IMG/VR virus record: IMGVR_UViG_2925891887_000001
Direction: 5' to 3' (one strand)
DNA from: a virus
Lineage: Duplodnaviria > Heunggongvirae > Uroviricota > Caudoviricetes
DNA length: 64,000 bases
The notes under the pieces were generated by a model. It saw nothing but the letters and a program-made list of their open reading frames with translations. It was not told where the DNA came from and searched no databases. Shown here piece by piece: positions 3,634 to 34,705 of the stretch. Numbering within the stretch: position 1 is the stretch's first letter; every line of letters starts with the position of its first letter. A program made the translations under genes and the position numbers.

Positions 3634-4332
3634 ATGGATTGTAGCAATAAAATGGATGTAAAAATCACGATTTTGCAGGTTGATGTTGCCAACCTTCGCC
3701 CGAATACCTGGAACACCAATTCGGTTGGTGCGCAGAATTTCGAAAAACTGAAAGGTTCTATCGAAAAATTGGGCTTTTTTAAGCCAATTTTGGCTCGTGA
3801 ACTTGAAGATGGATTTTTTGAAATCCTCGGCGGCGAACATCGCTGGCGTGCCGCTATTGAGCAAGGAATTTCAACGGTTCCGGTGCTTTCTGTGGGCAAA
3901 ATTAGCGATGTCGTAGCTAAACAGATGTCACTGGTGGACAACGAGCGATACGGTGAAGACGACCAAATCGCATTGCAACGCTTCATTGAAGAAATTCAGT
4001 CAGAGCTTGACTATCAACTGTCTGAAATCGCCCCGTATGACGACGAAATCTCGATGGTTTTAGCAAAAGAGGCGGCAATCGACCTTGAAGCACTGGAGGC
4101 GTTGTCTCGTGGTAGTGATGAGCCTGTCGATACCGACAAACGAGAGAAAACCGAACGTGTGGGTGCGGAACATCAGACCATGCGCTTCAAAGTAACTTTC
4201 GATGCGTCAGATCGTGTTGCAGAAACCATAAAAAACATCATTAAAGAGCAGGCTATTAACACCGGTAATGAAATGGAGAACGCTGGTGAGGCTCTGGTGT
4301 GGCTGGTCGACTACTACAAGGAGCGTATGTAA
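3634..4332 (+). CDS. ParB-like nuclease domain protein
   Basis: N-terminal ParB/Srx-like segment (ARELEDGFFEILGGEHRWRAAIEQGISTVPV); start could instead be the ATG near 3652. Confidence 0.55.
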   Translation: MDCSNKMDVKITILQVDVANLRPNTWNTNSVGAQNFEKLKGSIEKLGFFKPILARELEDGFFEILGGEHRWRAAIEQGISTVPVLSVGKISDVVAKQMSLVDNERYGEDDQIALQRFIEEIQSELDYQLSEIAPYDDEISMVLAKEAAIDLEALEALSRGSDEPVDTDKREKTERVGAEHQTMRFKVTFDASDRVAETIKNIIKEQAINTGNEMENAGEALVWLVDYYKERM

Positions 4333-5000
4333 TGACCAAAAAGTTTGAAATCGTATATCGCGACCCGGCAGATCTTATTCCCTATGAGATGAATGCCAAA
4401 AAGCATGATGAACAGCAGATCCGAGATCTGGCCGCAGCCATTAAAAAGCGCGGATTTGACCAGCCAATTACGGTCGATAAGAACGACGTAATTATTACTG
4501 GCCACGGCCGCCGTGAGGCTGCAATTTTTGCTGGACTTGAGCGCGTACCGGTTATTGTTCGCGATGATCTCAGTGATGACGAGGTTCGTGCGAAGCGCCT
4601 TGAAGATAACCGACTTGCCAGCATTGATTACGATGCAATTAAGCTACAGAAAGAGCTTGAGTCGCTTGTTCTGGACGATATCGAGGTTTTCGGCTTTGAA
4701 GAGCGTGAGTTGAATGTTCTCGTTGGCAGTATGACAGAAGAAATGGACACCGACTCGCTAGTTATCGATCTTGGCGAAGAAACTAAACGACAGAAGGATG
4801 AACACACCGTGATCAGTCGTGAAGTTGCAGCGGAAGAAGTACGTGTTGTCGACGTATTGGGCTTTAAAACGCTCCCTGCTGGCTCTGCCATTGTTGTTGG
4901 TGATTTGCTTGCCCACATGGAAGAAATGACGGGAGAAAGCGGGGTAGACGCATTTGTGGCATATGCGGAGAAGATCTCTTCCGGGGAGATGGCTGCATGA
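4332..5000 (+). CDS. ParB-like nuclease domain protein (second copy)
   Basis: ParB N-terminal-like motif (ITGHGRREAAIFAGLERVPVIV); ATG overlaps upstream stop (TAATG) with AAGGAG upstream; track ORF begins 4299. Confidence 0.55.
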   Translation: MTKKFEIVYRDPADLIPYEMNAKKHDEQQIRDLAAAIKKRGFDQPITVDKNDVIITGHGRREAAIFAGLERVPVIVRDDLSDDEVRAKRLEDNRLASIDYDAIKLQKELESLVLDDIEVFGFEERELNVLVGSMTEEMDTDSLVIDLGEETKRQKDEHTVISREVAAEEVRVVDVLGFKTLPAGSAIVVGDLLAHMEEMTGESGVDAFVAYAEKISSGEMAA

Positions 5001-5635
5001 GCAAATACATCATCAACGTATCGTTTCAGACACGCGTAAATAAAACCACGCGCACGTTGGAAATCGCTGAGTCGTTCGGGCTTGGCCTGGACGAAAAAGA
5101 GTGGACGCTTTACGACAATCTGGAGCTGGAAGTGAAGCAGGGCGATGTGGTGTACATTACCGGCCAATCCGGTTCCGGCAAATCCGTTGTGCTGCGCGAG
5201 CTGCAACACCAGATGAAGGATGAAGGGCTATCTGTGGCCTCCATCGATGATTTTACCTTCGATAATGAGGTTAACGTCATTGACCAACTGGGCAAAACTA
5301 CCAGTGATGCGCTTGGGTTGTTATCTATGGCTGGTCTGAACGATGCATATCTGTTTGTTCGCAAGCCTTCTGAAATGTCAGACGGTCAGAAATATCGTCT
5401 CAAGATTGCCAAACTGATTGAGTCAGGCGCTAAAGTGTGGGCTGCTGACGAGTTCGGCGCTGTTCTCGACCGTGTAACCGCTCAGGTTGTGGCATCTAAC
5501 CTCCAGCGTGCCGCTCGAAAGGTTGGTGCGACGGTAATGGTGGCGACGACTCACGAAGACCTGAAGAACGCGCTGCGCCCGGATATGCAGATCACCAAGC
5601 ACTACAAAGAACGCGTGAAGGTGGAATATGCCTGA
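4997..5635 (+). CDS. ABC-type ATPase domain protein
   Basis: Walker A GQSGSGKS, ABC signature-like SDGQKYRL, Walker B VWAADEFGAVLD, H-loop TTHE; stand-alone 212 aa. Confidence 0.6.
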   Translation: MSKYIINVSFQTRVNKTTRTLEIAESFGLGLDEKEWTLYDNLELEVKQGDVVYITGQSGSGKSVVLRELQHQMKDEGLSVASIDDFTFDNEVNVIDQLGKTTSDALGLLSMAGLNDAYLFVRKPSEMSDGQKYRLKIAKLIESGAKVWAADEFGAVLDRVTAQVVASNLQRAARKVGATVMVATTHEDLKNALRPDMQITKHYKERVKVEYA

Positions 5636-5882
5636 TTTGAAGATCGTAGAGCTGAAGCCATCGAAAGAGACTGATAACAACAACGTGGAAGTCATCCGCC
5701 TGCTGGAAGAAGCACTTCAGCACGCCAGAGAAGGAAAAAGCCAGAGCCTGGCGCTGTTGATGATCAACAACGACGGCAGTGTTCTTGATTGCTGGCATAA
5801 CGGCGGGCGCCCGTATGTCATGGTAGGGGCGATGGAGTCTCTTCGCCTGGATTTCATCAATGCCAATATCGAGCGCAGGTGA
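5628..5882 (+). CDS. Hypothetical protein
   Basis: 84-aa ORF overlapping neighbours (operon-like coupling). Confidence 0.4.
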   Translation: MPDLKIVELKPSKETDNNNVEVIRLLEEALQHAREGKSQSLALLMINNDGSVLDCWHNGGRPYVMVGAMESLRLDFINANIERR

Positions 5883-6778
5883 TCGAGATGGCAGATATCA
5901 TCATCAAACGCTACCGCCCTGAAGAGTTTCCGCGTCATCTGGACTTTCTGGAGCGAATGACTGTCACAAAGGGAACTGTAGAGGACTGGCACGCTCTTAA
6001 GTCGCTTCACTACAAAACAGACGGCAAACCTTTCGCGCCAACTTACTATCGCTGCGAACTTGATGACCGTCTGGTGGGCGTCGTGGTTATGGCTTACCCG
6101 AAACTACTGCTGGCACCTCGCCACCGCATGTTTCCTAAGTTGAAACCAACCACTAATACCACCGTGGCTAACCAGTACTGGGGTCGGTACGTGAATAACA
6201 ACTTTGCGGTGATCAGTCGCTCAGTTGTGGATACTCAGTATCGTGGCGTAGGCGTCTCTTATCGAATGATTAACCTGGTTAGCAGGATGCATGACCGGCC
6301 AATCATTGAGATCCAGTCCTCGATGAGCAAATACAATCCCTTCGCCATGAAAGCAGGGTTTAAGTTCATCCGCCCTGAGCGACCGAAGAGCTATGAAAGT
6401 GCACTGCGTGTATTCCAGCGCCATTTCCGTTCCGACCCGGGTGATAACGAGGCGATCGTCAAAGAGTTGTTCGCAATGAGCGAGTCTCGTCGTCGCCGTG
6501 CACTGCGTGATCTGGTGGCGGACTACCACAAGAACAGTTCCCTGGCAAAAGCTGGGCGGAATCGTGGCACGACGATTCAGGACATTGCCGACAGTCTGGT
6601 GGACGAGGCCAGCATTGTGAAGCTGCTCAAGGACATTCACAACCTGAGCTTTACGTCTCCGTTGTATGGTGTGTACCGAAACCCTGACTTTGGCCGTCGA
6701 CTGCCTGACACGCTGCCACTGCTGGCATTCGACAAACAACCTTTGGATAAACCGTTAGAAATTGCTTTACCGGCATAA
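5879..6778 (+). CDS. GNAT-like acetyltransferase domain protein (tentative)
   Basis: R-x-x-G-x-G-like motif YRGVGVSYRMI typical of GNAT acetyl-CoA binding; 299 aa. Confidence 0.35.
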   Translation: MIEMADIIIKRYRPEEFPRHLDFLERMTVTKGTVEDWHALKSLHYKTDGKPFAPTYYRCELDDRLVGVVVMAYPKLLLAPRHRMFPKLKPTTNTTVANQYWGRYVNNNFAVISRSVVDTQYRGVGVSYRMINLVSRMHDRPIIEIQSSMSKYNPFAMKAGFKFIRPERPKSYESALRVFQRHFRSDPGDNEAIVKELFAMSESRRRRALRDLVADYHKNSSLAKAGRNRGTTIQDIADSLVDEASIVKLLKDIHNLSFTSPLYGVYRNPDFGRRLPDTLPLLAFDKQPLDKPLEIALPA

Positions 6779-6787
6779 GGATTTGCC

Positions 6788-7054
6788 ATGACGTTAACCG
6801 ATAAACAAAAGGACATCATCAAAACGCTCAATCTCGGTTATGAGCGAGGTCATCTACTTGACCTGGACGAATTGCTTGAAGTTTTGCCGTACAAGACAAC
6901 CAAGCAAAGTATCCAGTTCTCAATTCGCGCTCTGATAAAAAAGGGGCTGGTGGAGAAAGGGCATACGCGCCAACGCAGTGACAATCGCTATCACCGCCGA
7001 ACTCTTGGGTTAACTACTTTAGGTCGAGCCAAAGCGAAGTTACTGGTGATGTAA
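6788..7054 (+). CDS. Small putative DNA-binding protein
   Basis: 88 aa, basic C-terminus, winged-helix-like segment (SIQFSIRALIKKGLVEKG). Confidence 0.35.
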   Translation: MTLTDKQKDIIKTLNLGYERGHLLDLDELLEVLPYKTTKQSIQFSIRALIKKGLVEKGHTRQRSDNRYHRRTLGLTTLGRAKAKLLVM

Positions 7055-7135
7055 TCGGTCTGGGAGCTTATTTAAAGACCTGCTTCTGTATATATAAATA
7101 ATAAGTAACTTATTAAATATATACGGAAGCAGGCT
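7055..7135. repeat. Near-perfect palindrome (~58 bp core); one copy of an inverted pair with 41728-41810
   Basis: gacctgcttctgtatatataaataataagtaacttattaaatatatacggaagcaggc; reverse complement recurs at 41728-41785 with about 2 mismatches, and the tttaaaga flank is also shared. Confidence 0.8.
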
Positions 7136-7249
7136 TCGTAAGACATGCCAGACCTAATTAAACACCCCAGAAAACAAGTTGGTTAGCAGATGCAGTAAAC
7201 AAGTTGTTTTAGAGCGCATGGACGCGCTCTGTGTGTTTTAGAGGGATCT

Positions 7250-7882
7250 ATGACGGTCGAAAAAGACGAGGTAAAAACTCGCCTGACACCAGCGGAGTGG
7301 GCCGAAGCTGAAGCCAAATGGACGTCAGGCGAATATACACTCTCAAAGCTGGAGGAAGAGTACGGCATTCGTCGTGAAACACTCTCCAGACATTTCAAAA
7401 AGCGAGGATTAGAGAAAGGCGCGGACTCTGTTGGGAAGATGGTTCGTGAGTCTCTTAAATCTGACGCAGAGCTTCGCGCTAAAGCCCGTGCGGAAAAGAT
7501 AGAAGAACGTCGTACACGTTATGACGGCTGGGCGTATGCGTTGGGGCAGATGGTGATGGTCGAAGTCACTACGGCCAAACGTGAGGGTAAGCCTTTAGGG
7601 GCGATTGAGGATTCTCTCAAGAGCTTACAGAGAGCCAGTAATACCCTTGCAAAATGCTTTGAAGTTTCGTCCAAAGCATTGGGCATGGATCATGCGGAAA
7701 ATGACGAGGAAGAAATTCCGAACCTGGTATTTGGTGAGCTTACGCCTTCCCAGGTGGCGAAATTACGTCAGGAAGACGACGAGCCTGAAATCATCGATGA
7801 CGAATTGCTTGAGACGTTGGAAGAAGAAGCTCTAAGCGAATTTGATGCGACAGATGATGGAAGTGAAGGGGAGGACGAATAA
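7250..7882 (+). CDS. Terminase small subunit (putative)
   Basis: Immediately upstream of large terminase; N-terminal HTH-like segment (YGIRRETLSRHF), acidic C-terminus; GAGG RBS. Confidence 0.6.
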   Translation: MTVEKDEVKTRLTPAEWAEAEAKWTSGEYTLSKLEEEYGIRRETLSRHFKKRGLEKGADSVGKMVRESLKSDAELRAKARAEKIEERRTRYDGWAYALGQMVMVEVTTAKREGKPLGAIEDSLKSLQRASNTLAKCFEVSSKALGMDHAENDEEEIPNLVFGELTPSQVAKLRQEDDEPEIIDDELLETLEEEALSEFDATDDGSEGEDE

Positions 7883-9138
7883 TGGCAATCCCGTCCTCGC
7901 TCAGTCTTGTGCAACTGCATTCTGGACAGATGAAAGTCTTCCAGTCTCCGCATCGATTTAAAGTTGTTTGTGCTGGTCGACGCTGGGGAAAATCCCGGTT
8001 GTCGATCTCCACTATTATTCGTGCGGCGGCAAAGGAAAAAAAGCAAAGGGTCTGGTATGTCGCTCCTACTTACCAGATGGCTCGCCAGATTTTGTGGGAC
8101 GATCTACAGGAAGTTCTGCCTCGTAAGTGGGTTAGGAAAAAGAACGACACCACGATGACAATCGTGTTGAAGAACGGTTCGGAGATCGCCCTCAAAGGTG
8201 CTGATAAGCCTGACACTCTGCGCGGCGTAGCGTTGCATTTTGTAGTGCTTGATGAATTTCAGGATATGAAGGCTGACACCTGGTACAAGGTGTTACGACC
8301 TACTCTTTCATCGACACGCGGCGGTGCACTGATCATTGGTACGCCAAAAGGCTTCTCGGAATTTCACAAACTGTGGACTATAGGCCAGAACGTAGAGCTG
8401 CAAAGAAAGGGACAGTGGAAGAGCTGGCAGTTTGTAACTGCCGATTCTCCGTTTGTGCCTACGGCGGAAATTGAAGCTGCTAAGAACGATATGGACCCCA
8501 AATCGTTCGCTCAGGAGTACCTGGCCAGCTTTGAGAACATGTCCGGGCGCGTTTACTACCCGTTCGATCGTAACGTGCATGTAAAACCGCTTCAGTTCAA
8601 CCCTCGGTTGCCTATATGGGTAGGGCAGGACTTCAACATTGACCCGATGTCTTCAGTAATTTTGCAACCTCAGCCAAATGGTGAGCTATGGGCAATTGAT
8701 GAATTGGTGCTCTTTTCCTCTAACACGGCAGAAGTTTGTGATGAGCTTGAGAGACGCTTCTGGCGCTGGAAATCACAGGTAACGGTATTTCCAGATCCGG
8801 CAGGTGCTTATCGCCAACATGCTCGTGGGGAGTCTGACGTAGACATATTCAAAGAGAAGGGATTCTTACGTGTCGATTATTCGAAAAAGCACCCGCCAAT
8901 TGCGGATCGTGTTAATGCTGTTAACCGAATGCTGATGTCCGCATCTGGAGATATCCGGCTGTATATCGATCCGAAGTGCAAGCATTTGATTGATTCACTG
9001 GAAAAAGTCATCTACAAGCCTGGAACACGAGATATGGATAAGACAGGTGGCATTGAGCATAGTGCAGACGCATTGGGCTATCCAGTACATCGTAGGTATC
9101 CAGTCAAAAACCGTGTTATTCTTGGTGGTTCTCGATAG
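7882..9138 (+). CDS. Terminase large subunit
   Basis: Walker A VVCAGRRWGKS, Walker B-like VLDEFQDM, C-terminal nuclease-like region; 418 aa. Confidence 0.85.
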   Translation: MAIPSSLSLVQLHSGQMKVFQSPHRFKVVCAGRRWGKSRLSISTIIRAAAKEKKQRVWYVAPTYQMARQILWDDLQEVLPRKWVRKKNDTTMTIVLKNGSEIALKGADKPDTLRGVALHFVVLDEFQDMKADTWYKVLRPTLSSTRGGALIIGTPKGFSEFHKLWTIGQNVELQRKGQWKSWQFVTADSPFVPTAEIEAAKNDMDPKSFAQEYLASFENMSGRVYYPFDRNVHVKPLQFNPRLPIWVGQDFNIDPMSSVILQPQPNGELWAIDELVLFSSNTAEVCDELERRFWRWKSQVTVFPDPAGAYRQHARGESDVDIFKEKGFLRVDYSKKHPPIADRVNAVNRMLMSASGDIRLYIDPKCKHLIDSLEKVIYKPGTRDMDKTGGIEHSADALGYPVHRRYPVKNRVILGGSR

Positions 9139-9164
9139 GTAAGTAATTATCTAAGGTTATTCAA

Positions 9165-10739
9165 ATGGAATTGAACGACAAACAAATTAAGGATCTGGTG
9201 GCGCGACGCCACCCGGAATACGAAAAGAAAAAAGAACATTGGGACTTCCTCGCCAGCACTTACGCTGGCGGGCGTGGTTGGTTTACAGACAATATCTTTC
9301 GTTACTTTAAAGAGGGAGATCAGGAGTTTAAGGAGCGAGTTGAACGTGCTTATCGCTTCAACCACACTCGTGAGGTGGTAAACCTCATCAACAAATATCT
9401 CTTTAAAGAAGACATTCATAGAAATATCGAAGAGGCACCAGAGCAGATCCGCAATTTCTGGAAACGTGCGACTCGCCAGAATGCCTCTATTGACTCATTT
9501 ATGGCCGCTATTGATTTGCAGTCGTCTATTTACGGTCGCATATGGGTTGTTGTCGATAGCACGATGAGTGGTGATGTTGAGTCAGTAGCTGACGAGAAAA
9601 AGAAAGATGCTCGCGCCTACGCCTACTGGATTTCACCTCAGCAAATGCTGGATGTGGCATGGGACGACGACGGGAATATGTTGTGGGCGTTAATTGTGGA
9701 AGTCGCTCGTGATGACGCAGATCCTTTTACTTCTACAGGTCAGGAATACCAACGTTATCGTCTGTGGACACAAAACGAGTGGTATCTGTTCCGTGAGGAA
9801 GTGAAGAAGGGCGCTGGTGGAGCAGGTCGCCGTCAGGCAAAAGTTATTTTAGAGGATAGCGGTGAGCATAATCTCGGCGTAGTTCCTGTGTTTCCTGTTG
9901 ATTGTATTGGAGAAAGTGAATCACCGTATTTCAGCCCATCGTTGATCGATGATATCGCTTATCTTGATCGTGCGGTTGCAAACTATCTGTCAAACCTTGA
10001 TGCCATTATTCAGGATCAGACATTTAGCCAGTTGGCTATACCGGTACAGTCGCTTTTACCTGGTGATGAAAACCACACTAAAGTGCTTGAAATGGGCACA
10101 AAGCGAGTCTTCACCTACGATTCTGAAGGTGGAAACCAGCCGTTTTATCTGTCACCAGACCCGAAACAAGCTCAGATGATCATCACTACGATTAAGACGG
10201 TGATTAACGAAATCTACCATTCAGTTGGTGTAGCTGGTGAGCGAACGAAGCAGGACAACGCACAGGGAATCGATAATTCATCTGGTGCCGCAAAAATGTA
10301 TGACTTCCAGCGTGTAAATAGCTTGCTTGTCACAAAAGCAGAGCGTCTGGAAAGGGCTGAACGCCAAATCATGCTACTGGTTGCGAAATGGATGGGGGCA
10401 GATCTGGACGAAGACCACTCTTTAATTGCGTATCCAGAAAGTTTCGATATTCGTGGCCTTACTGATGAATTTTCTGTTGCCGAGAAACTGTCATTACTTC
10501 AGGCACCGGACTCTGTACGTCGTCACCAGATGGAAATGCTTATTGAGAAGATTTTCCCGAACATTACTGAGGCGATGAAAAAGGAATTTGATAAAGATCT
10601 CTTGAATTTTCCTCCAAAAAATGATCTAAATACCCTTGAAAATAAGTCAGTACTTACTTATGATCGTGGTGCAGCCCAAGAAAGCGGGCAAGATCAACCC
10701 CGAGGGAATGGGGACTCATCTACTCAAGAGAACGAGTGA
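9165..10739 (+). CDS. Portal protein
   Basis: 524-aa protein directly after terminase; size and position typical of portal. Confidence 0.7.
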   Translation: MELNDKQIKDLVARRHPEYEKKKEHWDFLASTYAGGRGWFTDNIFRYFKEGDQEFKERVERAYRFNHTREVVNLINKYLFKEDIHRNIEEAPEQIRNFWKRATRQNASIDSFMAAIDLQSSIYGRIWVVVDSTMSGDVESVADEKKKDARAYAYWISPQQMLDVAWDDDGNMLWALIVEVARDDADPFTSTGQEYQRYRLWTQNEWYLFREEVKKGAGGAGRRQAKVILEDSGEHNLGVVPVFPVDCIGESESPYFSPSLIDDIAYLDRAVANYLSNLDAIIQDQTFSQLAIPVQSLLPGDENHTKVLEMGTKRVFTYDSEGGNQPFYLSPDPKQAQMIITTIKTVINEIYHSVGVAGERTKQDNAQGIDNSSGAAKMYDFQRVNSLLVTKAERLERAERQIMLLVAKWMGADLDEDHSLIAYPESFDIRGLTDEFSVAEKLSLLQAPDSVRRHQMEMLIEKIFPNITEAMKKEFDKDLLNFPPKNDLNTLENKSVLTYDRGAAQESGQDQPRGNGDSSTQENE

Positions 10740-25568: not shown

Positions 25569-25585
25569 ACAAGGATTTTTTGAAC

Positions 25586-28500
25586 ATGGAACAGTTCAAG
25601 AAGAAAAAGCTACCGCTGTTTATTGCCGGTGCGGGTGGTAAAAAAAGCAGCAAAAGCTCTAGTCGTACACCGGTTGAAGCCGACGATACCGTAAATTCTC
25701 GTGCAATGGCCGCTATCCTCGATCTTCTTGGGGAAGGGGTAATTGGCGGCTTAGTAAATGGCGCAAGATCTATTTTTATCGACGATCTGCCGATTGTAAA
25801 TGAAGACGGTTCCTCCAACTTCAGCGGAATCACATGGGATTTTCGCGACGGTTCACAAGACCAGACTCCAATGTCTGGCTTTGATTTCGTTGAAACGCCT
25901 AAATCCGTCAATATCCAGTTAAAAAAAACACATTATGTAACGGTTTCAATCGATAACGATGAAGCTGATCGGGTTCGTGTCATCATGAAGTTTCCTTCTT
26001 TGCGAAGCATAGATAAAAAAACTGGTGACACGAACGGTACGACTGTTGAGTACAAGTTCCAGATAGCAAATGGCGACTCAACATTTGTAGATGTGGTCGC
26101 GGAAGGTGAAAAAAGCGTTGGCATTAAGCTAACAGCAAAGAAGACCGGCGTTTATTACCGTAGCTACGAGCTGAAGCTGCCTAAGCCTGGACGCGCATAC
26201 AAGGTTCGTGTAGTCCGTATTACCGATGATAACAGTAGCCAGTATCTCTATAACGATACATGGGTGGATTCAATCGGGGAAATTGTCGATACACCGATGA
26301 ACTATCCAAACTCTGTTTTGGTTGGATTGAAGGTAAACTCTGAGCAATTCGGCAGCACCATGCCATCTCGCTCTTATCTGGTGCGTGGCCTAAAAATTCG
26401 AGTACCTTCAAACTATAACGAGTCCAGTAACACTTACGCTGGGGTATGGGATGGCACTTTTAAGCTGTTGTCTTCTTCGAACCCCGCGTGGATTCTCTTT
26501 GATTTGCTGACCAATGCTCGATATGGCCTTGGTCAGTATGTGTCGGAATCTATGATTGACCTTGGCCAGTTGTACCAGATTGGTCGATATTGTGACGAAG
26601 AGGTCGATGATGGCTTTGGTGGCAAAGAGAAACGCTTTGCAATCAATACGCAGATCACCAGTCGACAGGACGCATACCGGCTAATTCAGGATATTGCCGG
26701 AGCATTCCGCGGCATGGTGTTTTGGGCTGGTGGGATGGTTAACATCATGCAGGATAGCCCATCAGATCCGGTAATGATGTTTACCAACTCTAACGTCAAA
26801 GATGGATTGTTTACCTATAAAGGTTCTGCGCGTAAAGATCGCCCATCCGTTGCGCTCGTAACCTACAACAACAAGGAGGACGGTTATAAGCAAAACATCG
26901 AGTACGTCGAAGATCAGGACGCAATGCGCCGTTATGGTGAGCGTAAAACAGAAGTCGTAGCATTTGGCTGTACAAGCCGAGGGCAGGCTCACCGAGTTGG
27001 TTTGTGGCTTTTATATACCGCCAGAATGGAGTCGGATGTAATTACATTTACTGCCGGCTTAGACGCGTCATTTCTGATGCCTGGTGAAACCGTTCTGATT
27101 CAGAACAAATATCGCGCAGGCAAACGTAACTCAGGTCGAATTGTGGCGTTTACCAAAAACAGCGTCACACTCGATGCGCCTGTGTCGTTAGCCAAAGGCG
27201 GCTGCTTTATTCGAATACTGAATCAGGAAGGCAAAATCGTTGAACGCGATGTTCTTGAAACTGGCGAAAATATAACAAAAGTTACGTTTTCAAAAGCCCT
27301 GTCTTCGGCTGAAACGCCTGTTTTGAACGGCGTCTGGACTATTACAGAACCAGACCTCGAACCTATGCGCGTTCGCATCGTTAACATCGCGCAGGGGGAA
27401 ACGCCGGGTAGCTTTGACATCACCGCTGTTGAGAACAATCCGTCTAAATATGAGGCAATCGACAATGGTGCAACGCTGATCCCACAGAATACGACGGTAT
27501 TGGACCCAACTTACTCCAAGCCATCTAATCTGCAAATCACTGAAGGGACTTATCTCTCAAGCCCGGGCAACCTGTCAGTAAAACTGACTGCAACATGGGA
27601 AGGGAAATCTCCAGAGTATTGGATCAGTTGGCGACGTTCTGATGAAAACAATGTATCGAACTGGCAATCGGCGCGTGTAACCGAAGAGCAATACGAAATC
27701 GTTAATGTCGCGGAGAATGGACGCTACGACTTCCAGCTGTATGCGGTTTCATTCAACGGTAAAAAAACAGAGATTATCAGTACCGTTTATCAGGTGTTGG
27801 GCACAATGACACCGCCGGATGCCCCAACGTCATTAACGGCCGTTGGAGACTATCGTAATGTGATACTGAATTGGGTTAATCCAGATTCGGTAGACCTTGA
27901 TCACATTAATGTTTACGCATCCCAGACCAACAATCTGGATACGGCGAAACTGATCGCAGAGTCTGCAAGCACCACCTTTACACATGCTGGTCTTGGGGAT
28001 AGCGAAACGTGGTATTACTGGGTTCGAGCATCGAACAAGCGAGGTATGTTAAGTCCTCCGAACTCAAACTTGGGTACAGAGGCGACAACTCGCGATGTAC
28101 TGTCGTTCCTGACTGGCAAAATTACATCTTCCGAGCTTGGTCAGGCTCTGCTTGAGGACATCAACAGCAAAGCCTCTCAAGAAGCAGTTGACGAGTTAAA
28201 TGAGCATATCAACCAGAGCGTCGAATCTTTGGAGGGGGCGGTAAACGACGTTAAGGAAGATATAGCTGAATTAGATAAGCAGTTCAGCGATAACCTCGCG
28301 GATTTTGAAATAAAATTCAACGAGCGTAGCGATGCTTTGGAGAACGCACAAACCGAGCTTAAAGGTGAGGTTTCGGCAACGATCGACAAGGTCAATGAAG
28401 CGTTTGAAAAAATTGATGCTACTGATGCTGCAATTGTTGAAATCGAAAACACCGTATCTGAACACGATAAAGCTCTCGCTAATACAGTCGAGGCAATAAA

Positions 28501-30313
28501 GGCTGCAAGAGATGAAGCGGCGGCTCTTATTGCTAAGGAAAGCGAGGCTCGTGTTGAAGGCGATGCTGCAAACGCTAAACAACTGGAAGTGTTGCAGTCA
28601 ACGGTAGAGGAAAGCTCCGCTGCCGTTGAAGAAATGAAAAAGACGGTTGCAGAGGTCGATCGTGCCAGTGCAGAACTGACTACGAACATTGAAGCGTTAG
28701 CTAAAACAAATATTGACCTGGCTCTTCGTCAAGATGAAGACCAGCACAAGCAGATGGTCAATAACGCGAAGATCGCAACAACACAGAAAACCTTTGCTGA
28801 TGATATGTCCGCAATGGCCACGAAGGTTGAGGAAATTCGCGTAGAAATTGGCGAAGACATTAAGGCCAGTATTCTGGAAGAGTCCACCGCTCGTGCCGAT
28901 GGCGATGAAGCGTTGGCAAAGCGTGTCACTCAGCTGCAATCTAAGTTTGAAGGAGATATCAGCGCGGCGATTAGTACAGAGCAGGAGGCTCGTACATCTG
29001 CCGATGAAGCTCTGACGACACAAATCACTCAGCTTGAGTCGAAAGTAAGCAACGATATCGTCGCAGCTATTAAGGAAGAGCAAGAAGCCCGAGCAACGGA
29101 AGATTCGGCTCTGGCAAGCCAGATCACCCAACTTCAGGCAAAAGTTGATGATGATATTTCTGCTGCAATACGCAGTGAGCAGGAGGCCCGAGCAAGCGGG
29201 GACTCTGCGTTAGCCAAACAAATAAACCAGCTTCAGTCAAAGGTTGACGGTGATATATCCGCTGCCATCACTCAGGAGCAGGAGGCCAGAGCAAGTGCTG
29301 ACCAGGCGCTCTCACGAGAAATTAACAGCCTGCGAGCACAAACCGGAACTGATATTGCCGCAGCGGTTGCTGTAGAGACAAAAGCAAGGACTGATGCCGA
29401 TAGTGCATTGTCTACCCAGATTACGTCTCTTACAGCAAAAGCTAATGATCTCAAGGCGTCTCTTGCCAGAGAAACAACGGCTCGTGCAGATGGTGATACC
29501 GCTTTAACAAAAGAGGTTTCAAGTTTAAAAGCACAGACAGCGAAAGATATTAGTGCGGCCGTTGCAGTTGAAACGCAGGCTCGAACTGATGCTGACTCGG
29601 CGTTGTCGTCTCAGATCACCAAGCTGACCTCTCAATACAAAGAGGATATTAAAGCGGCTGTAGCAACCGAAACGAAAACGCGTACAGAGCAAGATGCTGC
29701 ATTGGCGACTCAAATCACAAACTTAGAGTCTCAAACGGCAGCCAACATTTCCGCGGCGGTCACAACTGAAACGAAAGCGAGAACGCAGGCAGATAATGCT
29801 CTGAGTGGGCGAATCGATACTCTGAAAGCAGAGGTGAATGGAAATACCGCGACAATTCAACAGCAGGCAACAGCTATTGCTGATACCAACAAAAAAGTGT
29901 CAACCGCGTGGACGTTGAAAATGGAGACTTCAACGAGCGGAGGGCAGAAGTATGTTGCCGGTATTGCGCTTGGTATTGACACCACTGGGCTATCTCAGTT
30001 TTTGGTTCAGGCGGACAGGTTTGGTTTGGTCAACTCTGTTAACGGGAAGATCACAACGCCATTTGTTATCGAAAACAGTATCGCCTATATGAATGGAGCG
30101 TATATCAAGGATGGCACAATCACCAATGCAAAAGTAGGCGATCTGCAATCTACCAATTTTGTTAGCGGTAGATCTGGATGGCGGTTCGGCAAAAATGGAA
30201 CGCTTGAGATCAACGGTAATAGCGGCGGCAATGGGCGATTGGTTATAAATGGTCAGCGGATTGACGTTTATGACGATAACAACGTCCTACGAGTAAGAAT
30301 TGGCCGTCTGTGA
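25586..30313 (+). CDS. Tail tip / host specificity protein J (central fibre)
   Basis: gpJ-like N-terminus (GGKKSSKSSSRTPVEADDTVNSRAMAAILDLLGEGVIGG), FN3-like region, then about 9-10 tandem 33-aa repeats; track start 25580 is TTG, ATG at 25586. Confidence 0.9.
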   Translation: MEQFKKKKLPLFIAGAGGKKSSKSSSRTPVEADDTVNSRAMAAILDLLGEGVIGGLVNGARSIFIDDLPIVNEDGSSNFSGITWDFRDGSQDQTPMSGFDFVETPKSVNIQLKKTHYVTVSIDNDEADRVRVIMKFPSLRSIDKKTGDTNGTTVEYKFQIANGDSTFVDVVAEGEKSVGIKLTAKKTGVYYRSYELKLPKPGRAYKVRVVRITDDNSSQYLYNDTWVDSIGEIVDTPMNYPNSVLVGLKVNSEQFGSTMPSRSYLVRGLKIRVPSNYNESSNTYAGVWDGTFKLLSSSNPAWILFDLLTNARYGLGQYVSESMIDLGQLYQIGRYCDEEVDDGFGGKEKRFAINTQITSRQDAYRLIQDIAGAFRGMVFWAGGMVNIMQDSPSDPVMMFTNSNVKDGLFTYKGSARKDRPSVALVTYNNKEDGYKQNIEYVEDQDAMRRYGERKTEVVAFGCTSRGQAHRVGLWLLYTARMESDVITFTAGLDASFLMPGETVLIQNKYRAGKRNSGRIVAFTKNSVTLDAPVSLAKGGCFIRILNQEGKIVERDVLETGENITKVTFSKALSSAETPVLNGVWTITEPDLEPMRVRIVNIAQGETPGSFDITAVENNPSKYEAIDNGATLIPQNTTVLDPTYSKPSNLQITEGTYLSSPGNLSVKLTATWEGKSPEYWISWRRSDENNVSNWQSARVTEEQYEIVNVAENGRYDFQLYAVSFNGKKTEIISTVYQVLGTMTPPDAPTSLTAVGDYRNVILNWVNPDSVDLDHINVYASQTNNLDTAKLIAESASTTFTHAGLGDSETWYYWVRASNKRGMLSPPNSNLGTEATTRDVLSFLTGKITSSELGQALLEDINSKASQEAVDELNEHINQSVESLEGAVNDVKEDIAELDKQFSDNLADFEIKFNERSDALENAQTELKGEVSATIDKVNEAFEKIDATDAAIVEIENTVSEHDKALANTVEAIKAARDEAAALIAKESEARVEGDAANAKQLEVLQSTVEESSAAVEEMKKTVAEVDRASAELTTNIEALAKTNIDLALRQDEDQHKQMVNNAKIATTQKTFADDMSAMATKVEEIRVEIGEDIKASILEESTARADGDEALAKRVTQLQSKFEGDISAAISTEQEARTSADEALTTQITQLESKVSNDIVAAIKEEQEARATEDSALASQITQLQAKVDDDISAAIRSEQEARASGDSALAKQINQLQSKVDGDISAAITQEQEARASADQALSREINSLRAQTGTDIAAAVAVETKARTDADSALSTQITSLTAKANDLKASLARETTARADGDTALTKEVSSLKAQTAKDISAAVAVETQARTDADSALSSQITKLTSQYKEDIKAAVATETKTRTEQDAALATQITNLESQTAANISAAVTTETKARTQADNALSGRIDTLKAEVNGNTATIQQQATAIADTNKKVSTAWTLKMETSTSGGQKYVAGIALGIDTTGLSQFLVQADRFGLVNSVNGKITTPFVIENSIAYMNGAYIKDGTITNAKVGDLQSTNFVSGRSGWRFGKNGTLEINGNSGGNGRLVINGQRIDVYDDNNVLRVRIGRL
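28870..29830 (+). repeat. Tandem 99-bp (33-aa) coding repeats inside gene J
   Basis: Repeated unit DISAAIxxEQEARxxADxALxxQITQLxSKVxx, about 9-10 copies. Confidence 0.8.
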
Positions 30314-30406: not shown

Positions 30407-33400
30407 ATGTGGTACAGGGAAGGTACTATCACATTTACACAGGGCAGCAATACTCTGGTTGGGGCAGGGACAGCCTGGAACGTAACAGCTAATGGTGTGT
30501 TGCCGGGGATGATCGTCATTGGCCCCGACAATAAGCTGTATGAGATCAAGCGCGTAACCAGTGATACGAACATTGTTCTCTCAGAACCTTATACCGGCGA
30601 AACTCAGTCTGAAGTTCCGTGCCGAATCATTACGACCTATGAAGGCGACTTAACACAGTTTAGCGCGCGCTTTACTGCGCTAATGTCGCGTATGTCGGCT
30701 GATTCCAAGTCCATACGCAGTTGGTTGACTGCGCTGGATGAGGTGACAATCGAGCGTGAAGACGGTACAGAAGTGACCGTTAAGCCGCTAATGCAGATCG
30801 TCAACGAGCACAACGAAAACGTTGAGTGGTATAAAAATAACACTGACGCGATTGATGCTGCTGGCGACAAAGCTCGTGAGGCGGCGGCCAGTGCTGCCGC
30901 AGCAGCAAAAAGCGCCAATGCCGCTGGAGAAAAAGCCTCTCAAGCGTCTCAAAGTGCATCCGCTGCGGCATCCTCACAAAGTGCCGCAAGTGCGAGTGCA
31001 ACTGCTGCGAAAAAATCTGAAACGAATGCTGCAGCGTCACAAAAATCTGCAGCCACTTCTGCATCCACCGCGACCACGAAGGCGTCAGAAGCTGCCACCT
31101 CAGCCCGGGATGCGGCGGCCTCAAAAGAGGCAGCGAAATCATCAGAAACGAGCGCAGCCTCGAGCGCCAGTAATGCCGCTTCCTCGGCAACGGCGGCAGG
31201 AAATTCCGCGAAGGCGGCAAAAACGTCCGAGACGAACGCCAGGTCTTCTGAAACGGCAGCGGGACAGAGCGCCTCGGCTGCGGCAGGCTCAAAAACAGCG
31301 GCTGCGTCGTCTGCCAGTGCCGCGTCAACAAGTGCCGGGCAGGCCTCAGCCAGTGCCACCGCCGCCGGAAAATCGGCAGAAAGTGCCGCATCGTCTGCTT
31401 CAACTGCCACAACGAAGGCTGGCCAAGCCACTGAACAGGCCAGCGCAGCAGCGAGGTCTGCTTCCGCAGCGAAGACATCCGAAACGAACGCGAAAGCGTC
31501 GGAAACCCGTGCAGAATCCTCAAAAACGGCAGCCGCATCGTCCGCCAGTTCGGCGGCGTCATCGGCATCATCGGCGTCTGCTTCAAAAGATGAGGCGACC
31601 AGACAGGCGTCAGCAGCGAAGGGCAGCGCCACGACGGCATCCACGAAAGCAACAGAGGCGGCAGGCAGTGCGACGGCAGCATCTCAGAGCAAAACTGCTG
31701 CTGAATCCGCTGCGACCCGTGCGGAAGCTGCTGCTGATCGTGCTGAAGAGATTGCCGGTGCAGTTGCGATGGAAGACGCAAGCCTTACAACTAAAGGTGT
31801 TGTGAAACTTAGCAGTGCTGTCGACAGCACCAGTGAATCGCTGGCCGCAACGCCAAAAGCAGTTAAAGCAGCCAATGACAATGCGAATAGCAGGGTGCCA
31901 TCTAACCGAAAAGTTAACGGTAAAGCACTGACTGCGGATATCAAATTAACGCCGAAAGATATTGGTACTTTAAATTCAGTAACGATGTCTTTCTCTGGCG
32001 GGGCAGGGTGGTTCAAACTGGCTACGGTTACCATGCCACAAGCGAGTTCCATCGTTTACATCGCATTGATTGGTGGCGCTGGTTACAACGTCGGCTCCCC
32101 ACATCAGGCAGGCATTTCAGAACTGGTTCTACGAGCAGGCAATGGAAACCCCAAAGGGATTACAGGTGCTTTGTGGAAGCGTACAGCTGTCGGATTAACG
32201 AATTTCGCCTGGATCAACACATCCGGCGATACATATGATATTTACGTTGAGATTGGCAATTATGCGACTCGTGTAAATATCCATTGGGATTGTACTGCAA
32301 ATGCGACAGTTTCTATTTATACCTCGCCAACATATTCAGCGAGTAAGCCTTCCAGCGTTACCGATGGTGTTGTTTATACGATGTATAGCACACATCAGAA
32401 ACCGACGCCGTTAGATATTGGAGCACTGCCAACAACCGGAGGAACAGTTTCAGGTCCGTTGTCTGTTACAGGTGGATTAACTGGTTCATTGAATGGTAAT
32501 GCAAGTACAGCCACGAAATTGCAGACGGCAAGATCTATCGGTGGAGTTGTTTTCGACGGTTCTGCAAATATTAACCTTCCAGGTGTAAACACTACGGGTA
32601 ATCAGAACACCACTGGTAATGCTGCAACTGCTACAAAACTTCAGACTGCAAGAAAAATATCCGGTGTTCCATTTGATGGTTCTACTGATATCACTTTAAC
32701 CGCTGCGCATGTTGCCGCTTTCGCAAGAAGGGCAACAGGGTCATATGCGGATGCTGATGGTGGCGTGCCGTGGAATGCTGAATCTGGTGCTTACAATGTA
32801 ACTAGAACAGGCGACACCTATATTCTTGCCAACTTTTATACCGGTGTAGGTAGTTGCCGGACCCTGCAGATGAAGGCGCATTACAGAAATGGAGGTCTGT
32901 TCTACCGTTCCTCAAGAGATGGCTATGGTTTTGAAAGTGGTTGGGAGCAGGTTTACACGACTGGATTTATGCCTCAGCCGGCTGATATAAACGCGCCAAC
33001 CGCTGCCGCTGGATGGTTAAATAGTGGTAACGGAACGGCATTTACGACTGCTCAATTTATAACTTGGCTAAATAATCAGGGGGCATTTACAAACAAACAT
33101 TGGATCGCACGGTGCTCATGGACTTACGCCAACAATAATTATATAGACGACACTGGTTGCGGTAGGATCGATCTATCTGGTTCCGTGATTGAGGTGTTTA
33201 GTAATAAGGCAACAAGCCACTACACTATTCGTGTTACAACGACAACAACATCGGGTCATGGTGGTGTTAACAATGCGGAATTTATTTATGTGTACAATGG
33301 AAGTGATTATGCACCAGGCTGGCGTCGTTCTTATAACACTAGAAACAAACCAACAGCTTCTGATGTAGGAGCATTACCGCTTTCAGGTGGCACATTATCT

Positions 33401-34705
33401 GGAGGGTTAACATCTTCTGGTGAGATCATTTCAAAATATGCAAATGGTTTCCGCATTGCTTACGGTAAGTTTGGGTTCTTTATCCGTAATGATGGGGTGA
33501 ACACATATTTCCTGCTAACAGCATCAGGAGACACATTAGGTTCATGGAACGGTTTGCGACCTATTACAATTAATAATACCAGCGGTGCTGTATCAATTGG
33601 TAATGGACTAAATGTGACTGGTGGCGTAAATGGTAGTTTGAACGGTAATGCTTCAACAGCTACGAAGTTGCAAACAGCGAGAAACATCAATGGTGTTAAG
33701 TTTGATGGTTCAGGCGATATCAATATTAATACATTGGTATCTCGTGGCCGAGTTACGGCGTTAAGCGGCTCTACTCAAGGCACTGCTGGCATTCAAATGT
33801 ATGAGGCGTACAACAATAGCTACCCGACCACGTATGGCAACGTATTGCACATGAAAGGTGCGAGTGCTGCTGGTGAGGGCGAGTTGCTTATTGGCTGGAG
33901 TGGTACGAGCGGTGCACATGCGCCAGTTTTCATTCGCTCACGAAGAGATAACACAGGTGCAGCATGGTCAGCGTGGGCGCAGGTATATACCGCTAAGGAT
34001 TCAATCCCTGGTGTGAATACAACTGGTAATCAGAACACTACTGGTAATGCCGCAACCGCCACAAAATTGCAGACAGCAAGGAAAATTGCTGGTGTGGCGT
34101 TTGATGGCTCTGCCGATATAACTTTGACTGCGGCTAACCTTAATGCTTACACGAAAACAGAGGTAGCAAACCTTCTAAGTTCCTATGCAAGCAGATCATC
34201 ACTGACAGGCTATAGTGGCAACCTGGATATTGTTGCTGAAACACTGGTTGTCAAATCAGGCGGTAGTGGAGGGTTTGCTATATGGGATATTGGCACAACT
34301 ACTAGCGGTGCCAATATGTACATTGATCCAAACCCAGGTATCAATACAGTTTGGCGTTCAACGTCTTCAAGGCGCTATAAAAAGGATATTGAAACATTAC
34401 AAGATCGATATGCTGATGAACTTTTGTCATTAAGACCTGTTTGGTATCGTTCAATTTGTCGAGGTGACCGAAAGGATTGGGGGTATTACGGCCTTATTGC
34501 TGAAGAGGTTGGTGAGATTGCCCCGCAATATGTCCATTGGCGTGAACCAACAAATAATGATTCTCCAGAAGATATTTCCTCAAATGGTATGGTCGCTGAA
34601 GGAGTGATGTATGAGCGTTTGGTTGTACCACTCATTTATCATATTCAGCAATTGACCAAAAGGGTTGAGGAGCTTGAAACGAAGTTAAATTCACCTAAAG
34701 AATAA
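30407..34705 (+). CDS. Side tail fibre protein with C-terminal intramolecular chaperone (peptidase S74-like) domain
   Basis: Stf-like Ala/Ser/Thr low-complexity region (KTSETNAKASE...), three copies of NGNASTATKLQTAR-x-I-x-GV-x-FDGS, and C-terminal chaperone-like segment (SRRYKKDIETLQDRYADELLSLRPVWYR). Confidence 0.85.
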   Translation: MWYREGTITFTQGSNTLVGAGTAWNVTANGVLPGMIVIGPDNKLYEIKRVTSDTNIVLSEPYTGETQSEVPCRIITTYEGDLTQFSARFTALMSRMSADSKSIRSWLTALDEVTIEREDGTEVTVKPLMQIVNEHNENVEWYKNNTDAIDAAGDKAREAAASAAAAAKSANAAGEKASQASQSASAAASSQSAASASATAAKKSETNAAASQKSAATSASTATTKASEAATSARDAAASKEAAKSSETSAASSASNAASSATAAGNSAKAAKTSETNARSSETAAGQSASAAAGSKTAAASSASAASTSAGQASASATAAGKSAESAASSASTATTKAGQATEQASAAARSASAAKTSETNAKASETRAESSKTAAASSASSAASSASSASASKDEATRQASAAKGSATTASTKATEAAGSATAASQSKTAAESAATRAEAAADRAEEIAGAVAMEDASLTTKGVVKLSSAVDSTSESLAATPKAVKAANDNANSRVPSNRKVNGKALTADIKLTPKDIGTLNSVTMSFSGGAGWFKLATVTMPQASSIVYIALIGGAGYNVGSPHQAGISELVLRAGNGNPKGITGALWKRTAVGLTNFAWINTSGDTYDIYVEIGNYATRVNIHWDCTANATVSIYTSPTYSASKPSSVTDGVVYTMYSTHQKPTPLDIGALPTTGGTVSGPLSVTGGLTGSLNGNASTATKLQTARSIGGVVFDGSANINLPGVNTTGNQNTTGNAATATKLQTARKISGVPFDGSTDITLTAAHVAAFARRATGSYADADGGVPWNAESGAYNVTRTGDTYILANFYTGVGSCRTLQMKAHYRNGGLFYRSSRDGYGFESGWEQVYTTGFMPQPADINAPTAAAGWLNSGNGTAFTTAQFITWLNNQGAFTNKHWIARCSWTYANNNYIDDTGCGRIDLSGSVIEVFSNKATSHYTIRVTTTTTSGHGGVNNAEFIYVYNGSDYAPGWRRSYNTRNKPTASDVGALPLSGGTLSGGLTSSGEIISKYANGFRIAYGKFGFFIRNDGVNTYFLLTASGDTLGSWNGLRPITINNTSGAVSIGNGLNVTGGVNGSLNGNASTATKLQTARNINGVKFDGSGDININTLVSRGRVTALSGSTQGTAGIQMYEAYNNSYPTTYGNVLHMKGASAAGEGELLIGWSGTSGAHAPVFIRSRRDNTGAAWSAWAQVYTAKDSIPGVNTTGNQNTTGNAATATKLQTARKIAGVAFDGSADITLTAANLNAYTKTEVANLLSSYASRSSLTGYSGNLDIVAETLVVKSGGSGGFAIWDIGTTTSGANMYIDPNPGINTVWRSTSSRRYKKDIETLQDRYADELLSLRPVWYRSICRGDRKDWGYYGLIAEEVGEIAPQYVHWREPTNNDSPEDISSNGMVAEGVMYERLVVPLIYHIQQLTKRVEELETKLNSPKE
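32582..32708 (+). repeat. ~125-bp direct repeat within tail fibre gene (copy 1)
   Basis: ggtgtaaacactacgggtaatcagaacaccactggtaatgctgc... recurs with few mismatches at about 34010-34136. Confidence 0.8.
34010..34136 (+). repeat. ~125-bp direct repeat within tail fibre gene (copy 2)
   Basis: Near-identical to 32582-32708; encodes GVNTTGNQNTTGNAATATKLQTARKI-GV-FDGS-DITLTAA. Confidence 0.8.

Follow-up and report, generated by a model that had tools for sequence, protein, structure and literature searches.

What does a phage tail protein gain from ten successive copies of one 33-residue unit placed directly before its tip domain? The question is raised by the J-like gene in a 64,000-nucleotide stretch of viral DNA (Caudoviricetes; IMG/VR record IMGVR_UViG_2925891887_000001), which was analysed as a whole and is called the window below. 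The window shares 99.2% identity with Escherichia phage Cyrano, the SSU5-like phage-plasmid pLF82 from E. coli LF82 (PMC9928086), and its J-like gene is 99.2% identical in DNA to the Cyrano gene CYRAN_20, annotated as tail host specificity protein J. The explanation that we favour, at a probability of roughly 0.55, is that the array is a hendecad coiled-coil shaft made of ten hairpin-competent units, which probably refolds to a beta prism during infection.

Laying out the translation in rows of 33 residues placed ten tandem units at residues 1093–1421 (nt 28856..29842, + strand). Nine of them are 33 residues long and one is 32, with a single residue lost at the boundary between units 6 and 7; the same 32-residue spacing of unit 6 is found in Cyrano, CMS-2020a and PhiR41_1. 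The units share the consensus DIxAAIxxExxARxxADxALxxQITxLxxKVxx with seven columns invariant in all ten (A4, E9, R13, D17, A19, L20 and L27), and their mean pairwise protein identity is 48.5%. Protein identity at a lag of 33 residues was 0.49, as against a maximum of 0.19 in 500 shuffles. An isolated eleventh copy, matched by a hidden Markov model (HMM) of the unit, stands 114 residues upstream of unit 1 and is kept at equal spacing in Cyrano, CMS-2020a, PhiR41_1 and the SSU5, Kluyvera and Yersinia relatives. When the array alone was searched against Pfam, no curated repeat family covered the unit and only coiled-coil-like noise was returned (Mitofilin, 25 bits, below the cut-off). The literature search did not find an earlier description of the 33-residue repeat, and the text of He et al. 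(2026; see below) does not contain the word "repeat". In other homologues the unit period is 32, 36, 39 or 40 residues, all of which are sums of 7s and 11s. In seven distant homologues, some without a PF09327 annotation, the unit recurs every 36, 39 or 40 residues, in as many as 12 copies. The unit tolerates insertions of 3–7 residues, which presumably lie in its turns.

A Fourier analysis of hydrophobicity gave a peak at 3.65 residues for the array. This corresponds to 11/3, so that each 33-residue unit represents three hendecads (33 = 3 x 11). The 3.5-residue period of a canonical heptad coiled coil was therefore not found in the array, and the upstream shaft (residues ~851–1092) alone comes close to it, with a peak at 3.54. 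On an 11/3 helical wheel, I2, I6, E9, R13, D17, L20, I24 and V31 fall into one stripe within +/-33 degrees, such that the invariant charged triad E9-R13-D17 lies in the predicted core. By contrast, the small-residue columns 4, 12, 14, 19, 21 and 29 lie 65–164 degrees away from the stripe and would be exposed on the predicted coiled coil. In 386 units from 80 distant PF09327 homologues, columns 4, 12, 19, 21 and 29 are small in 97–99%, and E9, R13 and D17 are conserved in 96%, 96% and 93%, respectively, values that are biased by the fact that the HMM that found these units was built from this array. Given that invariant small residues are exposed while the E-R-D triad is buried, the array is probably more than a passive length spacer. 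Coiled-coil propensity is suggested by the Fourier peak and by helix in an AlphaFold2 (AF2) model; combined with homology to the solved helical shaft of an F-type pyocin, the coiled-coil interpretation is supported. The first-pass annotation, made from the sequence alone, had placed nine to ten tandem units of 33 residues at 28870-29830, in the C-terminal half of host-specificity protein J, and had predicted a coiled-coil-like rod. The repeat withstood careful alignment, with ten in-register units and the refined limits given above; the consensus that it had offered agrees with ours, its rod is supported by the three lines of evidence just named, and its naming of the gene agrees with hub homology, Pfam, PHROG 31 and gene order.

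The combination of exposed small residues and a charged core has a counterpart in the F7 pyocin. On cell contact, a 163-residue coiled coil of the F7 central fibre changes into a beta prism of triangular shape, and this conversion opens the tip, with ejection of the tape measure (He et al. 2026, bioRxiv 10.64898/2026.01.28.702463). The F7 strands, which alternate in orientation, each bear the motif SxSxxMxxLxS, in which Glu or Asp at M pairs with Arg at +/-4, as in Glu1039-Arg1043; the S positions are exposed, while M and L are buried in or beside the coiled-coil core (bioRxiv 10.64898/2026.01.28.702463). Gln substitutions at small prism-corner residues (corner Ala-to-Gln) left assembly intact and led to loss of killing; the F7 mutant positions are A987, A995, V1010 and A1017 (bioRxiv 10.64898/2026.01.28.702463). 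Scoring this motif on the array showed that all five positions fit in 10 of 10 units, twice per unit and in opposite orientations. The reversed match occupies columns 4–14 (A4, I6, E9, A12, A/T14, with R13 at E9+4), and the forward match columns 19–29 (A19, A/S/T21, I/V24, L27, S/A29). A single perfect fit of this sort occurred in 1.3% of column permutations. The E9-R13 pair reproduces the published Glu1039-Arg1043 pair, and on the 11/3 wheel the S columns are exposed, M is in the core stripe and L is in or beside it (L27 at -65 degrees). Because the two matches run in opposite orientations, one unit can form one beta hairpin.

Structure prediction returned both folds for the same units. AF2 run 1 (units 6–10 plus the tip domain; 40 sequences) gave long helices, with predicted local distance difference test (pLDDT) values of 80–93 in units 6–8 and 50–68 in units 9–10; the helix stops at model residue 152 and is followed by a strand at 154–162 (residues 1411–1419, in unit 10). 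Run 2 (units 8–10 plus the tip domain; 60 sequences) gave a beta meander with two strands per unit (E2-14/E18-31, E35-48/E51-65 and E68-80/E84-97) at pLDDT 90–97 (mean 90.9), and the strand positions coincide with the two motif matches. The array ends at residue 1421, directly N-terminal to the PF09327 domain that starts at 1425, and the first strand of the helical model begins within unit 10; in the fibres of He et al., too, the switching segment directly precedes prism strands that do not switch and act as a seed. CF-random likewise yields both folds for F7, whose assembled state is the solved coiled coil, and of the related phage fibre regions that He et al. examined, 30% are predicted as prisms by AlphaFold3 (AF3) (bioRxiv 10.64898/2026.01.28.702463). 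The two models of units 8–10 are suggestive of a resemblance to these fold-switching fibres.

If the array behaves in this way, the following course of events can be envisaged. In the assembled virion, three J chains would most likely come together as an almost straight coiled coil of three strands, with the array as the distal shaft of a trimeric central tail fibre; at 0.15 nm per residue, the ten units would measure ~49 nm and keep the PF09327 tip domain at a distance from the tail cone. Each unit would also encode a second fold, the beta hairpin. By analogy with F7, receptor engagement would let the beta prism of the tip domain serve as a seed that grows upward unit by unit, so that the rod would become a compact, triangular prism with about 20 strands and a length of roughly 10 nm. 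Formation of the prism would draw the cone closer to the membrane and open it, so that the tape measure and DNA could leave. The switch has been demonstrated in the F7 pyocin, and it is from this analogy that we infer it for the array and for infection by this phage.

Several observations weigh against such refolding. The AF2 runs are monomer predictions that differ in both construct and alignment, so that they do not amount to a controlled comparison of deep and shallow alignments, and among the units of the five-unit construct of run 1 beta structure is confined to the second half of unit 10. Foldseek searches against the PDB with both models found relatives through the tip domain alone (lambda J and SU10) and no post-ejection pyocin prism. 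The two strands per 33 residues predicted here are not reconciled with the "5-6 strands" of He et al., and the proposed switch region is twice the length of the only one observed, that of the F7 pyocin. A switch of this extent is not seen in lambda or T5, as He et al. point out (bioRxiv 10.64898/2026.01.28.702463). The J protein of this phage, as of any SSU5-like phage, is without an experimental structure, and the T1 equivalent is too flexible to resolve.

At the DNA level the repeat is far less apparent. The units have a mean pairwise identity of 52% (maximum 65%); identity at a lag of 99 nt is 0.53, as against 0.28 at other in-frame lags, while third codon positions at lag 99 reach only 0.36, near background. 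The longest exact direct repeat within the array is 12 nt, and shuffled sequences give a mean of 9.3 and a maximum of 13. Tandem Repeats Finder (TRF), run on the DNA, reported no 99-bp array, and the reason is that the units are only 52% identical in DNA, not that the repeat is absent. Given that the units have diverged in DNA with third positions near background, we conclude that the duplications are old and have been kept by selection on the protein. Since no exact repeat exceeds 12 nt, there is nothing for an assembler to collapse or expand; with nearly all of the complete plasmid records listed showing ten units, a unit count produced by assembly is implausible. Many database entries for J are fragments beginning inside the array, for example one of 339 aa that is 99% identical and has 102 member sequences (Logan assemblies). 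As the DNA is without long repeats, such entries could reflect contig ends, internal start calls or an index length limit.

Copy number was compared among relatives. Searching 5426 complete E. coli genomes found the array in 167, always on plasmids and at >=95% identity in 166; in 164 of the 167 plasmid records, 80% or more of the query is covered, and variants were counted from the ~85 matches listed (95-100% identity). All but three of those listed span the query's 1401 nt exactly, corresponding to ten units. The protein homologue search returned mostly partial sequences of <850 aa, and full-length copy numbers were therefore taken from loci. There are ten units in the window, Cyrano and both CMS-2020a records, nine in PhiR41_1, seven in one metagenome-assembled genome (MAG), six in a 108-kb Yersinia pestis contig (NCTC5923), and five in SSU5, Kluyvera and a Bacillota MAG. 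Distant relatives thus have 5–7 units and near-identical E. coli plasmids 9, 10 or 11, and the difference is always a matter of whole units. Across the array, PhiR41_1 differs from CMS-2020a SCU-175 by two mismatches and one exact 99-bp deletion, whose junction lies within 11 nt of microhomology. The pCUPF07B plasmid has gained 99 bp (11 units), the extra unit being a unit-5/unit-4 hybrid, and the aligner places the insertion at 29176, beside GAGCAGGAGGCC. In the CT01 plasmid, 99 bp are lost (9 units) and the aligner puts the deletion at 29201, at or next to the 12-nt repeat, while in the HCP30S3_I2 plasmid, also with 99 bp lost and 9 units, a unit 3/4 hybrid stands for units 3 and 4. All four independent events are in frame, involve one unit each and fall within units 3–5, the most similar neighbours in the array, at microhomologies of 5–12 nt. 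Changes of unit number are rare among the matches listed and proceed through microhomology. The first-pass annotation had spoken of a 99-bp unit that changes copy number easily by recombination, and had raised a short-read assembly artefact as a way in which this could be wrong. The unit exists as a protein-level repeat rather than a DNA repeat, and copy number does vary, but "easily" overstates the case when <=12 nt are shared and ten units are nearly constant in the matches listed.

Some observations on individual relatives accompany this comparison. The E. coli AR_0104 plasmid (NZ_CP020118.1 41787..43963, 98.7% identical) has an IS1 family transposase inside the J array region that splits the gene, and this phage-plasmid is probably tail-defective. 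In the Yersinia pestis NCTC5923 contig and the Bacillota MAG, J is 1549 and 1540 aa long with its six and five units, which implies roughly 120-140 residues past PF09327 and possibly a receptor-binding domain that is absent from the window protein. The idea that the upstream shaft is a "spine" that scales with array length was rejected, since this shaft measures 233 aa in SSU5, with five units, and 258 aa in the window protein, with ten.

How do other explanations of the array fare? The DNA data bear most directly on a hypermutable contingency repeat, or an assembly artefact, driven by frequent recombination between DNA repeats. The four independent one-unit changes are what it would predict, but near-identical units that misalign readily were not found (52% identity, an exact repeat of 12 nt, TRF negative), nearly all of the ~85 matches listed have ten units, and the variants are in frame and within units 3–5, so that we regard it as highly improbable. 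A less remote alternative takes the coiled coil at face value, as a rigid three-stranded rod of ~4.9 nm per unit that sets the reach of the tip through O-antigen or capsule and never refolds. Hendecad periodicity and the helical AF2 model are what such a rod would show; the solved F2 pyocin shaft is helical and has a second use as a docking site for side fibres, and copy number differs by host, with 5-7 units in Salmonella/Kluyvera/Yersinia/MAG relatives versus 9-11 in E. coli. A rod of this kind leaves unexplained, however, why Ala, Ser or Thr is near-invariant at six exposed columns in the ten units and in the 386 distant ones, why a charged E-R-D triad sits in the core, and why the same residues are predicted to be beta with high confidence. 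For these reasons it is a possibility that we hold to be doubtful.

The beta prediction can also be pushed to its limit, with the array as a constitutive beta prism continuous with PF09327, like the central straight fibre of lambda, that is never a coiled coil. The pLDDT of the run 2 strands is above the helix confidence of run 1 for units 9-10, and Foldseek matches the run 2 beta model to the lambda central fibre 8xci with a probability of 0.98. Against this, the segment homologous to it has been solved as a helix in assembled pyocins of types F2 and F7, and the 11/3 stripe and the i/i+4 spacing of E-R-D are specific to a helix and would have no role in a hairpin. Moreover, predictors give prisms even for F7, whose assembled state is a solved coiled coil (He et al.), which makes a permanent prism unlikely. 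A coiled coil that is competent to refold into the prism remains the explanation that we prefer.

The array was also set beside known central fibres. In the F2 pyocin fibre (PDB 25vf), residues 927-1193 align with residues 1276-1548 of the J-like protein (E 9e-24) and contain the same ~33-residue unit directly before the tip domain (AASLQSEQTARANADSALAQRIDTVQAS); this segment is the solved three-stranded alpha-helical shaft to which side fibres also dock (PMC13455828). F-type pyocins and the J-like protein have in common a lambda-J-type hub, FN3 domains, a long helical shaft, three-stranded in pyocins and probably so in J, a PF09327-type beta-prism tip and the SxSxxMxxLxS motif, in which M is Glu and Arg stands at +4. 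They differ in that pyocin units are degenerate, with a switching segment of 163 residues or about 5 units, whereas ten sharply conserved units make up 329 residues here, and in that a pyocin is a bacteriocin while the window is a DNA-containing temperate phage-plasmid. T1 gp33 (PDB 9L9P, PMC11945409) and other Drexlerviridae central fibres have a J-type hub (E 5e-132) and, right before the tip, 33-residue units like DDIQASLTDIREVIATETEALSREIDQLKAQIG, of which about three or four appear in alignments; residues 821-1172 at the gp33 C-terminus could not be resolved, and AF3 models them as an alpha/beta fibre of 37 nm (PMC11945409). Lambda J (PDB 8IYK, 8XCI/8XCJ) resembles the J-like protein in its hub domains and its PF09327 central-straight-fibre prism. 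It matches in the hub and tip domain only, with no equivalent of the array seen, and in lambda a separate domain that binds LamB follows the prism; lambda is not reported to undergo a large fold switch. Pseudomonas phage DEV gp56 (PDB 9ZE4) has three recognisable units followed by the same C-terminal motif, although this is a fibre of 429 aa that stands alone, in an N4-like podovirus, and is not fused to a J hub; the contact of its coiled-coil domain with the plug gp74 is proposed to be destabilised on LptD binding, unplugging the tail tip (PMC12892993). Among closer relatives, the J proteins of SSU5 (SSU5_020), Yersinia pestis pMT1-type and Kluyvera plasmids share the gene, the isolated upstream unit, the array position and its register, with five units in SSU5 and Kluyvera and six in Y. 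pestis versus ten here, and the Yersinia protein apparently extends past the tip domain. By its unusual length and regularity the array stands out as a new member of the type of fibre shaft described in 2026; it does not represent a type of its own. The Cyrano tail was measured at 259 +/- 12 nm and no fibre was described (PMC9928086). A tail of 229 nm is predicted from the 1525-aa tape measure, and the ~30 nm beyond this could stem in part from the tip cone and a portion of the central fibre.

Pfam finds FNIII-A_GpJ at residues 104-238, Phage-tail_3 at 360-523, fn3 at 747-826 and Phage_Tail_Tip (PF09327) at the C-terminus, such that the array is flanked by a lambda-J-type hub with FN3 domains on one side and by the tip domain on the other (Table 1). 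Residues 19-860 align with solved lambda J, T1 gp33 and the F2 pyocin fibre (E 1e-124 to 1e-153), and the protein is assigned to PHROG 31, "central tail fiber J". By sequence it belongs to the lambda-J-type central tail fibres (TipJ / PHROG 31), and, judging from solved homologues, it would form a trimer at the tail tip of the virion. The tip domain matches lambda J 840-971, T1 gp33 985-1168 and DEV gp56 in sequence; it is all-beta in both AF2 models, and Foldseek matches it to fibres of lambda (central fibre, 8xcj/8xci) and SU10 (tip fibre, 7z4b). The non-repetitive shaft upstream of the array has no significant lag-33 identity, and its search against Pfam gave weak, sub-threshold matches of coiled-coil type only. 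The open reading frame (ORF) opens at a TTG, while the Cyrano annotation begins 6 nt (two codons) downstream at an ATG at 25586 (MEQFKKKK...), which is probably the true start of J.

Table 1. Coordinates of the J-like gene, its repeat units and adjacent features (positions in the window; aa, residues of the J-like protein)
Feature	Position	Strand	Remarks
J-like central tail-fibre / tip-attachment gene	25580..30313	+	1577 aa; ORF list and translation
Non-repetitive helical shaft part, heptad-like	28082..28855 (about aa 835-1092)	+	Fourier peak 3.54 residues
Isolated eleventh unit copy EAAALIAKESEARVEGDAANAKQLEVLQSTVEE	28514..28612 (aa 979-1011)	+	unit-HMM match
Unit 1	28856..28954 (aa 1093-1125)	+	
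Unit 2	28955..29053 (aa 1126-1158)	+	
Unit 3	29054..29152 (aa 1159-1191)	+	
Unit 4	29153..29251 (aa 1192-1224)	+	lost or duplicated in all four copy-number variants found
12-nt exact repeat GAGCAGGAGGCC	29177..29188, second copy 29276..29287	+	longest exact repeat in array
Unit 5	29252..29350 (aa 1225-1257)	+	
Unit 6	29351..29446 (aa 1258-1289)	+	32 residues; one-residue register skip
Unit 7	29447..29545 (aa 1290-1322)	+	most divergent unit
Unit 8	29546..29644 (aa 1323-1355)	+	AF2: helix in run 1, two beta strands in run 2
Unit 9	29645..29743 (aa 1356-1388)	+	
Unit 10	29744..29842 (aa 1389-1421)	+	second half is a beta strand in otherwise helical model
Phage_Tail_Tip / central-straight-fibre beta-prism domain	29852..30256 (aa 1425-1559)	+	PF09327, E 1e-41
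Side tail-fibre gene, directly downstream of J, outside array	30407..34705	+	1432 aa; Gp34_trimer, Peptidase_S74; tail-fibre PHROGs

Shaft and tip also stand apart from the hub in their divergence. The J gene of CMS-2020a SCU-175 is 92-98% identical in DNA at gene nt 900-2400 and 59-71% identical from nt ~2400 (residue ~800) to the end, a drop indicating that shaft and tip form a separate, divergent module. In Klebsiella SSU5-like phages, J past residue ~860 is swapped for a different region of >1300 aa. Judged from these sequences, the shaft and the tip behave jointly as a host-range module that can be exchanged. The Klebsiella phages were uninformative for copy-number comparison, as they have a wholly different J C-terminus of >2200 aa. 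In vB_KpnS_p4727 (locus 4001..10609) and a second such phage, the J hub has 75% DNA identity and J runs off the locus; after residue ~860, coiled-coil-like stretches alternate with globular, probably carbohydrate-binding, modules, with no 33-residue array. As for neighbouring genes, the Cyrano annotation of the same locus has the tape measure protein (TMP), M, L, K and I genes upstream of J and the side-fibre gene downstream. The side tail fibre is 1432 aa in the window versus 1341 aa (4026 nt) in Cyrano, despite 99.2% identity in J. It has a long Ala/Ser-rich low-complexity stretch at about residues 150-450, four copies of "GNA(S/A)TATKLQTAR...FDGS", a T4 Gp34_trimer domain and a C-terminal Peptidase_S74 chaperone.

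That the array tunes fibre length or receptor reach, as the first-pass annotation put it, is plausible. We can only tentatively go further and view each unit as a quantal hairpin module of a protein spring, in which unit number sets both reach and contraction stroke and the series of unit numbers reflects adaptation to how thick the surface layer of the host is. If this were true, each unit would add ~4.9 nm to the pre-infection rod and ~1 nm to the post-switch prism, for a stroke of ~4 nm. The natural variants, with 5, 6 or 7 units among distant relatives and 9, 10 or 11 on near-isogenic E. coli plasmids, would then be a ready-made allelic series for the scaling of stored folding energy with length. 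Without a switch, the array would be a common type of shaft that sets the length of the fibre. Among phage-plasmids there are some that spread resistance genes, and those of the SSU5/Cyrano type are common in E. coli, with the array in 167 of 5426 complete genomes. If the shaft does switch, the natural 9-, 10- and 11-unit variants in near-identical backgrounds would make the relation of switch length to host range and penetration directly testable.

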